A stretch of DNA of 27,280 nucleotides from a virus (lineage: Duplodnaviria; Heunggongvirae; Uroviricota; Caudoviricetes): IMG/VR virus record IMGVR_UViG_2534681604_000001. One strand, written 5' to 3'. The position numbers and the translations under genes are program-made. This document shows, one piece after another, positions 4,333 to 11,681 of this stretch (positions within the stretch are counted from its first letter, which is position 1; the number at the start of each line of letters is the position of its first letter). The notes beneath the pieces were generated by a model. The model worked only from the letters and a program-made list of their open reading frames with translations, searched no databases and was not told where the DNA came from.

Positions 4333-4407
4333 GGGTCAGTCGTATAAAGGTCATTACGGAAGGCTGTTAACCTTCTTATCGTGGTTCGAGTCCACGCTGT
4401 CCCGCCA
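4333..4407 (+). tRNA. tRNA-Asn-like (anticodon GUU), acceptor stem has one U-U mismatch
   Basis: Hand-folded cloverleaf: acceptor gggtcag/ctgtccc with U4-U69 mismatch; anticodon stem gaagg/ccttc, loop ctGTTaa; T arm cgtgg-ttcgagt-ccacg; discriminator G; encoded CCA. Anticodon loop and T loop match E. coli tRNA-Asn. Confidence 0.55.
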
Positions 4408-4412
4408 AACAT

Positions 4413-4488
4413 GCTGGTTTAGCTCCAATGGTAGAGCAGTCGCCTTGTAAGCGAATGGGTAGCGGTTCAAGTCCGTTAACCAGCACCA
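4413..4488 (+). tRNA. tRNA-Thr (anticodon UGU)
   Basis: Hand-folded 76-nt cloverleaf: acceptor gctggtt/aaccagc; D arm gctc-caatggta-gagc; anticodon loop ctTGTaa; T arm agcgg-ttcaagt-ccgtt; discriminator A; encoded CCA. Confidence 0.7.
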
Positions 4489-5410: not shown

Positions 5411-5874
5411 GCAGGGTAACCGCGATTATCTCCGCTCTGGTTATCTGCATCATCGTCTGCCTGTCATGGGCTGTTAATCATTACCGTGATAATGCAATCG
5501 CCTACAAAGAACAGCGCGATAACAAGGCCAGTGAACTGGAGAAGGCGAACGCCACCATTACTGACATGCAGCAGCGCCAGCGTGATGCTGATGCACTCGA
5601 TGATAAATACACGAAGGAGTTAGCTGATGCGAAAGCTGAAAATGATGCTCTTCGGCGCAAGCTTGATAATGGTGGTCGGGTGCTCGTCAAAGGAAAATGC
5701 CCTGTGCCATCCTCAGCCGAAACCTCCAGCGCCTCCGGCATGGGCAATGATGCCACCGTCGAACTCTCTCCAGTTGCTGGACGAAACGTTCTCGGTATCC
5801 GGGACGGAATTATCCGCGACCAAACAGCACTGAGAACGCTTCAGGAATACATCAGGACGCAATGCCTTCGATGA
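5407..5874 (+). CDS. Rz: Rz i-spanin
   Basis: [31 protein letters not shown]… recognised as lambda Rz (N-terminal TM, coiled coil). ATG at 5407 overlaps the endolysin stop as ATGA. Confidence 0.9.
5627..5833 (+). CDS. Rz1: Rz1 o-spanin (lipoprotein, embedded in +1 frame of Rz)
   Basis: [23 protein letters not shown]… has a lipobox (VVGC) and Pro-rich region. Lies entirely inside Rz in another frame; aaggag 7 nt upstream of the ATG. Confidence 0.85.
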
Positions 5875-6048
5875 TAGCGATAATTTTACTCATCATCCTT
5901 CACATCTGGCTCTGTAGACAGGGTGGTGCTCACTTCTGGAGTGAATCCAGATTAAACATCTCATTGCTGATGCTTGATATTGAGCATTTTGCGCGCGGTA
6001 AGGGGCTGCGTTGAGATAAGAACCAGTCATTACAAATACCAGGATTTA

Positions 6049-6073
6049 GCCTCGCATTCGCGGGGCTTTTTAT
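6049..6073 (+). terminator. Intrinsic terminator downstream of the lysis cassette
   Basis: 7-bp GC-rich stem gcctcgc/gcggggc, 4-nt loop, then ttttt at 6067-6071. Confidence 0.55.
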
Positions 6074-6085
6074 TGCCATTACAAA

Positions 6086-6107
6086 AGCCACTTCCTACAG
6101 AGTGGCT
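6086..6107 (+). promoter_or_regulatory. Second hairpin (weak terminator-like)
   Basis: Perfect 7-bp stem agccact/agtggct with 8-nt loop, followed by only ttt. Confidence 0.3.
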
Positions 6108-6365
6108 TTGATAATGGTTTATACCCTACACGGGATAACTTAACTGATATCCCTTTTAAAGGATAAAGGTATTCAAGCCTGACACATCATGCGCTGTATC
6201 GTCGCCGTATTCCCGTATTAACAGAGACCGTAGCCCGACGGGGAACTCCTTCTGCGCGAGTGTGCGGGAATAATCAAAAACGATGCACACCGGGGTTACC
6301 GGGTACACATATTTCATCATGCCAGCGAGTCCGGTTCTGGCACGGAAGAAACCGGACGTTATGAT

Positions 6366-6776
6366 TTAGTGCGGAAATATTTGTGTAGTGTTCTGAATGT
6401 TCTCAGTAAAGAGTAATGAATTATCAAAGGTATAGTAATACCTTTTGTTTTCGTGGATATTTGTAATCCATCTGAAAACCCCTGCTGTAGCAAGATTTTT
6501 CCTGTATTCGTAAAATGATAACTCTCCTGATTTGAATCCTTTTAAGGTGGCTTCTATAAGGCATTTATTTTTTGAAAATCTTACATTTACAACCTTACCC
6601 TGTCCTTTTATTAAAACCGTATTATCGTTTTCAAGAACAAGATGAATATTCTCTGTAGCTAAATAGTAAATGTAATGTGAGACATTGTGACGTTTTAGTT
6701 CAGAATAAAACCAGTGATAGTTTAAATTATTTCGCACTTTATCGAATATTTGTTTAAAAATGGCAACCTGAGCCAT
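6366..6776 (-). CDS. Hypothetical protein, possibly YbcV-like (DUF1398), in AT-rich island
   Basis: Minus-strand ORF. Preferred start is the second ATG ([16 protein letters not shown]…), which has ggaagg 7 nt upstream; the ORF-track start at 6791 has no SD. Strongly AT-rich. Resemblance to DLP12 YbcV is from memory. Confidence 0.5.
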
Positions 6777-6832
6777 TGTAGTACCTTCCATGTGATATGA
6801 GGGGCGTAGTCTGCACGATTATCTAAATTGCT

Positions 6833-7066
6833 TCAATCTGGTCTGATCTGTTTTCTGAGCAATTCAGTAATGTCACTCTTTTCTTTGTTTGCTTCAGGAG
6901 AAACTCTTTTTTCTGAGCACAGTCTCCGGCGGCAGGCTTCAATGACCCAGGCTGAGAAATTCCCGGACCCTTTTTGATCAAGAGCGATGTTAATTTGTTC
7001 AATCATTTGGTTAGGAAAGCGGATGTTGCGGATTGTTGTTCTGCGGGTTCTGTTCTTCGTTGACAT
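6833..7066 (-). CDS. Small basic protein, possibly YlcI-like (DUF3950)
   Basis: 77-aa ORF MSTKNRTRRTTIRNIRFPNQMIEQINIALDQKGSGNFSAWVIEACRRRL…, basic N-terminus, just upstream of cos on the minus strand. Resemblance to DLP12 YlcI is from memory. Confidence 0.5.
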   Translation of the reverse strand: MSTKNRTRRTTIRNIRFPNQMIEQINIALDQKGSGNFSAWVIEACRRRLCSEKRVSPEANKEKSDITELLRKQIRPD

Positions 7067-7234
7067 GAGGTTGTCCCGTATTTAGTGTCGCTGATTTGTA
7101 TTGTCTGAAGTTGTTTTTACGTTAAGTTGATGCAGATCAATTAATATGATACCTGCGTCATAATTGATTATTTGACGTGGTTTGATGGCGTAGATGCACG
7201 TTGTGACATGCAGATGATAATTATTATCATTTTG

Positions 7235-7445
7235 CGGGTCCTTTCCGGCGATCCGACAGGTTACGGGGCGGCGACCTCGCGGGTTTTCGCTATTTATGAA
7301 AAATTTCCGGTTTAAGGCGTTTCCGTTCTTCTTCGTCATAACTTAATGTTTTTATTTAAAATACCCTCTGAAAAGAAAGGAAACGACAGGTGCTGAAAGC
7401 GAGCTTTTTGGCCTCTGTCGTTTCCTTTCTCTGTTTTTGTCCGTG
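7235..7445 (+). other. cos region (cosQ - cosN - cosB with Nu1 binding repeats)
   Basis: Sequence around ggtcctttccgg…gatccgacaggttacg GGGCGGCGACCT cgcgggttttcgctatttatg… matches the joined lambda right and left ends; cosB repeats (e.g. cgtttccgttcttctt, tgtcgtttcctttctc) precede Nu1. Confidence 0.85.
7266..7277 (+). other. cosN cohesive-end sequence (12-nt GGGCGGCGACCT)
   Basis: Exact lambda 12-nt cohesive end, 178 bp upstream of the Nu1 start. Confidence 0.85.
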
Positions 7446-7454
7446 GAATGAACA

Positions 7455-7974
7455 ATGGAAGTCAACAAAAAGCAGCTGGCTGACATTTTCGGTGCGAGTA
7501 TCCGTACCATTCAGAACTGGCAGGAACAGGGAATGCCCGTTCTGCGAGGCGGTGGCAAGGGTAATGAGGTGCTTTATGACTCTGCCGCCGTCATAAAATG
7601 GTATGCCAAAAGGGATGCTGAAATTGAGAACGAAAAGCTGCGCCGGGAGGTTGAAGAACTGCGGCAGGCCAGCGAGGCAGATCTCCAGCCAGGGACTATT
7701 GAGTACGAACGCCATCGACTTACGCGTGCGCAGGCCGACGCACAGGAACTGAAGAATGCCAGAGACTCCGCTGAAGTGGTGGAAACCGCATTCTGTACTT
7801 TCGTGCTGTCGCGGATCGCAGGTGAAATTGCCAGTATTCTCGACGGGATCCCCCTGTCGGTGCAGCGGCGTTTTCCGGAACTGGAAAACCGACATGTTGA
7901 TTTCCTGAAACGGGATATCATCAAAGCCATGAACAAAGCAGCCGCGCTGGATGAACTGATACCGGGGTTGCTGA

Positions 7975-8000
<26 letters not shown>
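7455..8000 (+). CDS. Nu1: Terminase small subunit Nu1
   Basis: MEVNKKQLADIFGASIRTIQNWQEQGMPVLRGGGKGNEVLYD… recognised as lambda gpNu1. Confidence 0.95.

Positions 8001-11681
<3,681 letters not shown>

Follow-up and report, generated by a model that had tools for sequence, protein, structure and literature searches.

Positions 6,366 to 7,066 of the viral record IMGVR_UViG_2534681604_000001 (Caudoviricetes) carry two minus-strand genes, ylcI of the ylcI/ynfO family and a gene of the DUF1398 family. The record comprises 27,280 nucleotides, and this whole stretch is referred to here as the window. Our preferred reading, to which we give a probability of about 0.55, is that the two are separable accessory genes. 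YlcI would be a small, probably Arc/Mnt-like DNA-binding regulator beside the packaging genes, and the AT-rich DUF1398 gene a probably silenced, stress-responsive moron encoding a non-enzymatic cytoplasmic protein of orphan fold. A first-pass annotation made from the letters alone had described two opposite-strand genes of about 136 and 77 amino acids (aa), and both open reading frames (ORFs) are present on the minus strand. The locus is laid out as follows.

6366-6776, minus strand: DUF1398 gene (YbcV/YdfO/lambdap78 family), 136 aa, in an ORF open to 6791 (141 aa).
6777-6832, minus strand: spacer between ylcI and the DUF1398 gene, holding a GGAAGG Shine-Dalgarno sequence and a weak -10-like GATAAT at 6818-6823.
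6833-7066, minus strand: ylcI/ynfO-family gene, 77 aa.
6309-6925, no strand assigned: replaceable AT-rich cassette (the DUF1398 gene and the 3' tail of ylcI), with flanks common to a Shiga toxin (Stx) phage of type Stx2a without DUF1398.

The families guessed in that annotation were recovered by profile hidden Markov model searches. The DUF1398 protein matches Pfam PF07166 over profile positions 1-119 of 119 (E 3.3e-43, 147 bits, cut-off 22). YlcI matches PF13132 DUF3950 (E 5e-21, 74.7 bits, cut-off 25) and NCBIfam NF041551 YlcI_YnfO_N (35.7 bits, cut-off 30). The DUF1398 start lies at the second ATG, at 6776, with GGAAGG 7 nt upstream; the resulting 136-aa product is the one annotated by RefSeq in identical prophages. 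Pairwise ratios of nonsynonymous to synonymous substitution (dN/dS) are 0.12-0.35 for DUF1398 and about 0.1 over the first 52 codons of ylcI, the latter between lambda-type and Stx-type copies. Because these values are low, indicating purifying selection, both are real, constrained genes. The window's copy of the cassette is 100% identical to many deposited prophages, and the 1.7-kb region is partly matched in 4903 genomes; first scans for related loci gave near-identical copies only.

The two genes differ in composition. At 31.1% GC in a window of 53.8%, the DUF1398 gene is lower than any other 411-bp stretch in the 27 kb (z = -3.9). The strongly AT-rich island described at first pass therefore holds for this gene, the window minimum, but the unit is uneven, with ylcI at 43.6% overall (47.5% in the conserved 5' part and 37.6% in the 3' tail). 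The GC step coincides with the boundaries of the cassette. In a blastn comparison of the window with the phage Stx2a_WGPS8, only 7066-6926 (86.5% identity) and 6308-6075 (89.8%) are common to both, and the place of DUF1398 and the ylcI tail is taken by 320 bp that are unrelated, AT-rich and include a terminator. The proposal of an accessory, moron-like unit is borne out by this absence of 6309-6925 between conserved flanks, and the DUF1398 cassette has two marks of a moron, presence or absence between such flanks and deviant composition. It shares these with the lambdoid morons bor and lom, which are expressed in the lysogen from their own signals. Like them, it is oriented against the late operon or independent of it, and lytic growth does not require it, its lambda counterpart lambdap78 being non-essential in a genome-wide CRISPR interference map of lambda (PMC10695390). 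Unlike Bor and Lom, which are outer-membrane proteins with a known virulence-related role, the DUF1398 product is predicted to be cytoplasmic, and its gene is without a clear predicted promoter.

Each gene is also found without the other. A tblastn search of deposited phage genomes recovered YlcI in 154 and DUF1398 in only 43. Stx2a_WGPS8 carries ylcI without DUF1398; there the gene diverges from an HNH-TerS-TerL packaging module that lies 41 bp away. YlcI-family genes (38-50% identity) also occur, with no DUF1398 nearby, in plasmid-borne satellites that are P4-like or phage-inducible chromosomal island (PICI)-like (L233 3501-3695; L234 3453-3635). There they are the sole opposite-strand gene, between antA/B (or a small ORF) and an icd-like-to-primase operon, a position typical of a switch regulator. 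At least 25 distant DUF1398 genes, in turn, have no YlcI within 4 kb and lie isolated in varied chromosomal neighbourhoods of E. coli (ycgX), Citrobacter, Klebsiella, Kluyvera, Raoultella, Pseudocitrobacter and Salmonella diarizonae. Among 5426 complete E. coli genomes, 2173 join the genes directly. The layout of lambda and DLP12, where about 0.5 kb holding the convergent gene ybcW splits ylcI from DUF1398, was found in 1362. Among 153 related viral contigs, 152 have a ylcI-DUF1398 spacer of 56-59 nt. With ylcI alone in phages and satellites, DUF1398 alone in chromosomes and a convergent gene inserted between them in lambda and DLP12, the toxin-antitoxin-like pairing on which the first-pass annotation had speculated is unlikely, and so is the regulator-effector pairing in an obligate form. 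Every prophage DUF1398 copy with enough flank follows ylcI, but ylcI often stands alone. The relation is therefore asymmetric: YlcI sits with the packaging genes as part of the backbone, and DUF1398 is one alternative cargo among several that can lie downstream of it.

YlcI (77 aa) is basic, as had been noted, with an isoelectric point (pI) of 10.6 and 17 K+R to 9 D+E. The conserved part, residues 1-50, is very basic (pI 11.5) and contains an Arc/Mnt-like motif, RNIRFP...GSGNFS; residues N36-F37-S38 show no variation across the alignment. The C-terminal tail is variable. In alignments, the tails vary by context and residues 1-50 remain near-invariant, a pattern that a recombination junction inside the 3' end of ylcI would yield.

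The conserved part can be laid over known ribbon-helix-helix proteins. YlcI TTxRNIRFP-NQMIEQINIALDQK-GSGNFS-AWVIEACRRRL aligns residue for residue with P22 Arc QFNLRWP-REVLDLVRKVAEEN-GRSVNS-EIYQRVMESF, and with Mnt, through strand, helix A, loop and helix B. Arc and Mnt of P22 (PF03869), the ribbon-helix-helix repressors of the immI region, are small phage proteins like YlcI, and they share with it the motif h-N-h-R-h-P, helix A, G-x-x-N/x-S and helix B in the same register. Profile comparison by hhalign returned P 0.005-0.007 in the ribbon-helix-helix register, but the shallowness of both profiles keeps the reported probability at only 5-7%. A single-sequence structural model of low confidence (predicted local distance difference test, pLDDT, 55) places helices at 18-32 and 38-49, where helices A and B of such a fold would fall. 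The satellite homologues adjoin antirepressor (antA/B) and icd genes, an arrangement that recalls the Arc/Mnt immI regions. YlcI departs from Arc and Mnt in its extra basic N-terminal arm, and profile methods do not rate the resemblance as significant (hhalign probability 7%). From alignment and modelling, an Arc/Mnt-like ribbon-helix-helix assignment for YlcI is likely but unproven. Separately, a local stretch of YlcI (window 7016-7066, residues 11-27) bears a resemblance to sigma-70 region 2.4/3.0 (TIRIPVHMIETIN), with YlcI TTRNIRFPNQMIEQINI set against sigma-70 QARTIRIPVHMIETINK; at E 0.5-1.2 it is not significant, and we treated it as chance.

The DUF1398 protein is 76% identical to YdfO, for which a solution structure was determined by nuclear magnetic resonance (NMR; 2HH8), and it fits the YdfO fold, a duplicated unit of two helices and three strands. 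This internally duplicated alpha/beta fold is an orphan, unlike any solved defence protein and unrelated to known toxins. A search for conserved catalytic-type residues across the family found none, and DUF1398 is therefore more likely to be a binding or modulator protein than an enzyme. The protein has a grand average of hydropathy (GRAVY) of -0.41 and no hydrophobic leader. The family is tiny: of 1.84 billion representatives it accounts for 189 clusters at 50% identity, and many of these are fragments. It is confined to Enterobacteriaceae. No toxin family in Pfam, PADLOC or NCBIfam matched the DUF1398 protein, and neither protein matched a defence model beyond chance among the 5027 of PADLOC-DB v2. 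Two hits were rejected as chance, one to HEPN_AbiA_CTD (E 0.014, below cut-off) and one to Csx23 in PADLOC (E 0.025, 12.6 bits).

The nearest known relatives of the DUF1398 protein are lambdap78, K-12 YbcV (in DLP12), YdfO (in Qin; 2HH8) and YcgX; ycgX, ybcV and ydfO have been noted as homologues before (PMC3509220). The window allele has diverged from lambda's lambdap78 by about 24%. For YlcI, the relatives are YlcI of DLP12, YnfO of Qin and a 64-aa ORF of lambda, whose N-terminal 50 residues are 93-100% identical to those of the window protein. All of these genes, including the window's, adjoin cos and diverge from nu1/nohD/nohA. The tails differ, the window having the 77-aa Qin-type (…VSPEANKEKSDITELLRKQIRPD) and lambda a short one. 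In lambda (DE3 and NC_001416 records), the region from Rz to cos holds bor, lambdap78 (DUF1398), the plus-strand lambdap79 (ybcW-like) and, just left of cos, the YlcI homologue. The latter is an intact ORF (λ 48109-48303 complement, NC_001416.1) to which RefSeq gives no feature, and its first 55 residues are 93% identical to window YlcI. lambdap78 is annotated with 177 aa, compared with the conserved 136 aa (λ 47042-47452 complement), and is labelled 'head protein'.

This comparison also bears on bor. As the first-pass annotation stated, bor is absent: tblastn of Bor, lambda's serum-resistance lipoprotein, against the window gave a best E of 0.44, elsewhere in the window. The two-gene cassette does not replace it, however, since lambda has bor together with a DUF1398 gene and a YlcI homologue between bor and cos. 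By blastn, window 6190-6849 matches lambda at 82.5% identity and 6904-8200 at 98%. Relative to lambda, then, the window lacks bor downstream of DUF1398 and has a segment of about 315 bp, 5875-6190, in its place. A lambdap79-like sequence is likewise absent from the window (tblastn). Without this segment of about 0.5 kb, ylcI and DUF1398 abut, like ynfO-ydfO in Qin and in contrast to lambda and DLP12, where the ybcW/lambdap79 insert lies between. DUF1398/YlcI matches also turned up in Pseudomonas, Staphylococcus, Kitasatospora, Paenibacillus, Acinetobacter and others, on contigs or 'plasmids' of about 3.5 kb or about 48.5 kb identical to the lambda right end; these are lambda control-DNA contamination of public assemblies.

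Published data on homologues bear on expression and phenotype. The homologues in K-12 cryptic prophages are transcribed (PMC7660256, PMC4077768, PMC12288877). The mRNA of ybcV and ybcW, which flank a PdhR site, falls about 10-fold in a pdhR mutant (PMC7660256). Under exposure to an ionic liquid, ydfO is the most strongly induced gene, by about 117-fold in quantitative PCR, and YdfO overexpression raised oxidative-stress resistance, as cited in the same study (PMC4077768). Overexpression of ybcV from the ASKA set altered glycogen accumulation (PMC2853380). RNA sequencing of K-12 identified ybcW-ylcI as a convergent overlapping transcript pair (PMC12288877). Expression of T4 MotB raised ybcV/ybcW more than 1000-fold in a DE3 lysogen with induced late genes (PMC7827196). 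ynfO and ydfO are still on a list of uncharacterised genes (PMC11551758).

Around the two genes, the following signals and landmarks were found.

6048-6072, plus strand: intrinsic-terminator-like hairpin with a T-run (z-score -6.2), facing the minus-strand terminator and bounding the lysis genes.
6075-6308, minus strand: conserved non-coding 3' region of the minus-strand unit, ending in the 6084-6109 hairpin.
6084-6109, minus strand: terminator-like hairpin followed by UUUU, about 255 nt past the DUF1398 stop.
7136-7168, no strand assigned: perfect 8-bp inverted repeat ATCAATTA-N17-TAATTGAT, a candidate operator 70-100 nt upstream of ylcI.
7203-7230, plus strand: promoter-like site GTGACA-N16-TATCAT, overlapping the Fur-box-like palindrome and aimed at cos and nu1.
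7216-7234, no strand assigned: Fur-box-like palindrome between ylcI and cosN, matching GATAATGATAATCATTATC at 16 of 19 positions (0.01 matches expected by chance per window).
7266-7277: cosN (GGGCGGCGACCT).
7455-8000: nu1.

A terminator scan found no terminator-like hairpin between ylcI and DUF1398 on the minus strand. Block 6075-6308 is 90% identical in the Stx2a phage and partly conserved upstream of bor in lambda. It is non-coding, because the 54-aa ORF at 6156-6320 (minus strand) is broken in both lambda and the Stx phage. We rejected that ORF as a gene on the same ground and for its neutral substitution pattern; it has no match in Pfam, NCBIfam or PHROG. From its sequence, the block could be a 3' untranslated region or a small-RNA element, and an Rfam scan of 5700-7500 returned no credible RNA family. 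Both the inverted repeat at 7136-7168, which contains the sole two copies of its 8-mer in the window, and the Fur-box-like palindrome are conserved in lambda. The palindrome may be connected with Fur sites reported in the vicinity of nohA, a gene named in a 2007 study of Fur site clusters.

The picture that emerges would be as follows. The variable region between the lysis genes and cos of lambdoid phages serves as a slot that hosts both genes, which in this window lie adjacent and are probably co-transcribed opposite to the late operon. YlcI would be the backbone-linked partner, its basic 50-residue N-terminal domain most likely forming a ribbon-helix-helix dimer that acts as a DNA-binding transcriptional regulator. 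The most obvious candidate target is its own promoter region beside cos, and its C-terminal tail would be the recombination junction with the downstream cargo. DUF1398 would be the cargo, a moron that H-NS probably silences until particular stresses relieve the repression. Its product may be a soluble cytoplasmic binding or modulator protein that changes host stress tolerance, as reported for the K-12 paralogues.

Several observations weigh against parts of this picture. HMMER searches of YlcI against PDB chains and Pfam gave no ribbon-helix-helix match, and together with the low hhalign probability (5-7%) and the model at pLDDT 55 this leaves the fold assignment statistically insecure. Lambda-type and Stx-type phages have unrelated sequences upstream of ylcI, which leaves autoregulation without the backing of a conserved operator. 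Upstream of ylcI and of DUF1398 no convincing sigma-70 promoter was found, the best candidates matching 8-9 of 12 positions, as expected from shuffled sequence. The stress phenotypes come from overexpression or transcript screens of paralogues and not from the window DUF1398, and the rise on MotB expression is ambiguous for control by H-NS because late genes of the DE3 lysogen were induced. Finally, the separation of the two genes has a limit within prophages, where all DUF1398 copies with enough flank have ylcI upstream. The one exception to this pairing among those examined is an IS5-mediated loss of DUF1398 that left ylcI intact. Some functional link between YlcI and DUF1398 may therefore exist.

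The alternative that survives best, although still improbable, ties YlcI to packaging. It would be a lysogen-phase repressor or a cos-proximal DNA binder that silences the terminase genes or cos, and DUF1398 would be co-transcribed cargo. This alternative draws on position, since in each of two unrelated terminase systems, namely lambda Nu1/A with cos and the Stx-type HNH-TerS-TerL, ylcI diverges from the first gene for packaging, and the satellite gene diverges from the icd-primase operon. The plus-strand promoter-like site, the Fur-box-like palindrome and the 8-bp inverted repeat between ylcI and cosN would also suit it. However, such placement may merely mark a module boundary where morons gather, and the intergenic sequences of the two phage types share nothing. 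The minimal cos function of lambda, moreover, is classically cosQ-cosN-cosB without ylcI, which counts against a packaging role.

Anti-phage defence or superinfection exclusion from the prophage, in which one or both proteins would block incoming phages or satellites, is also unlikely, and slightly more so. In favour of this reading, the unit has an AT-rich composition, evolves under purifying selection and occurs very widely. It occupies a variable accessory slot, antisense to the late genes, that other lambdoid morons also use, and the dispensability of lambdap78 for lytic growth would fit such a role (PMC10695390). Yet no hit among the 5027 PADLOC models did better than a chance-level E of 0.025, and the DUF1398 fold does not resemble solved defence proteins. 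The small size of the family, its restriction to Enterobacteriaceae and standalone paralogues such as ycgX in non-defence neighbourhoods also speak against defence, and the literature found reports no such phenotype.

There is very little probability in a type II toxin-antitoxin-like system, in which YlcI would be antitoxin and autorepressor and its tail would neutralise a DUF1398 toxin, stabilising the prophage or aborting infection. The gene order invites it: on one strand, 56 nt separate the gene for a small basic putative DNA binder from that for a protein of about 136 aa downstream, no terminator intervenes, the context is mobile and AT-rich, and ylcI precedes every prophage-type DUF1398 gene with enough flank. 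Across the families, however, the two are not coupled, each being widely found alone and the pair being split in 1362 genomes. Matches to toxin-antitoxin or defence models and conserved catalytic-type residues in DUF1398 are both lacking. YdfO could be produced for NMR (2HH8), and cells overexpressing YbcV and YdfO, from ASKA or otherwise, stayed viable and showed phenotypes (PMC2853380, PMC4077768). The IS5-mediated loss of DUF1398 was tolerated as well, although losing that partner would be harmless for any toxin-antitoxin pair. A structural role for DUF1398, for which the database labels 'head protein' (PHROG 413, RefSeq) and 'putative envelope protein' (older lambda annotation) speak alone, is barely credible for a soluble protein (GRAVY -0.41, no hydrophobic leader, NMR solution structure) with no capsid-like or envelope-like fold match found, whose gene runs against the late operon, scored as non-essential in lambda (PMC10695390) and is kept in cryptic prophages and as chromosomal paralogues.

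As a whole, the window is a lambda-like E. coli prophage. In it, a Q-like region, tRNA-Asn/Thr, holin, endolysin and Rz precede cos, nu1, A and the head and tail genes of lambda type. Two further features flank the locus on the lysis side.

4333-4488: tRNA-Asn(GTT) and tRNA-Thr(TGT) genes, between the Q-like region and the lysis genes.
5862-6014, plus strand: 50-aa ORF with a hydrophobic N-terminus, overlapping the end of Rz and hypothetical in RefSeq.

The placement of the tRNA genes resembles that in many Stx-type lambdoid phages. The 50-aa ORF is followed by the strong intrinsic-terminator-like hairpin, and the ORF and 6015-6190 together fill the place of bor. On the other side of the locus, an 85-aa ORF at 7082-7339 (minus strand) matches PHROG 9395 and spans cosN and the lambda left end. 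We rejected it as a gene for spanning cosN, and it is almost certainly a spurious gene call propagated through phage annotations.

Both ylcI and DUF1398 belong to already-annotated families and occur in lambda, in the K-12 cryptic prophages DLP12 and Qin, and across thousands of genomes of E. coli. The locus holds little novelty. The remaining value is mostly curatorial: the lambda reference is without a YlcI gene, lambdap78 is over-extended and bears unsupported labels, and public assemblies contain lambda contamination. Both proteins nonetheless belong to the y-ome, and a large share of E. coli genomes encode them. One thread of modest interest is the conserved lambda YlcI that lacks an annotation, together with its recurrent placement as a lone antisense gene heading lytic operons in phages and satellites. 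At the bolder and doubtful end, YlcI/YnfO could be an unrecognised Arc/Mnt-type repressor of lambdoid phages and satellites that heads lytic operons (terminase; icd-primase) as a brake in the prophage state, with DUF1398 as stress-responsive cargo under its control. If this were true, the YlcI brake could prevent stray terminase expression and cos cleavage in the prophage. A defined role for the cos-adjacent YlcI would be a small yet genuine gain for the best-studied of phages.

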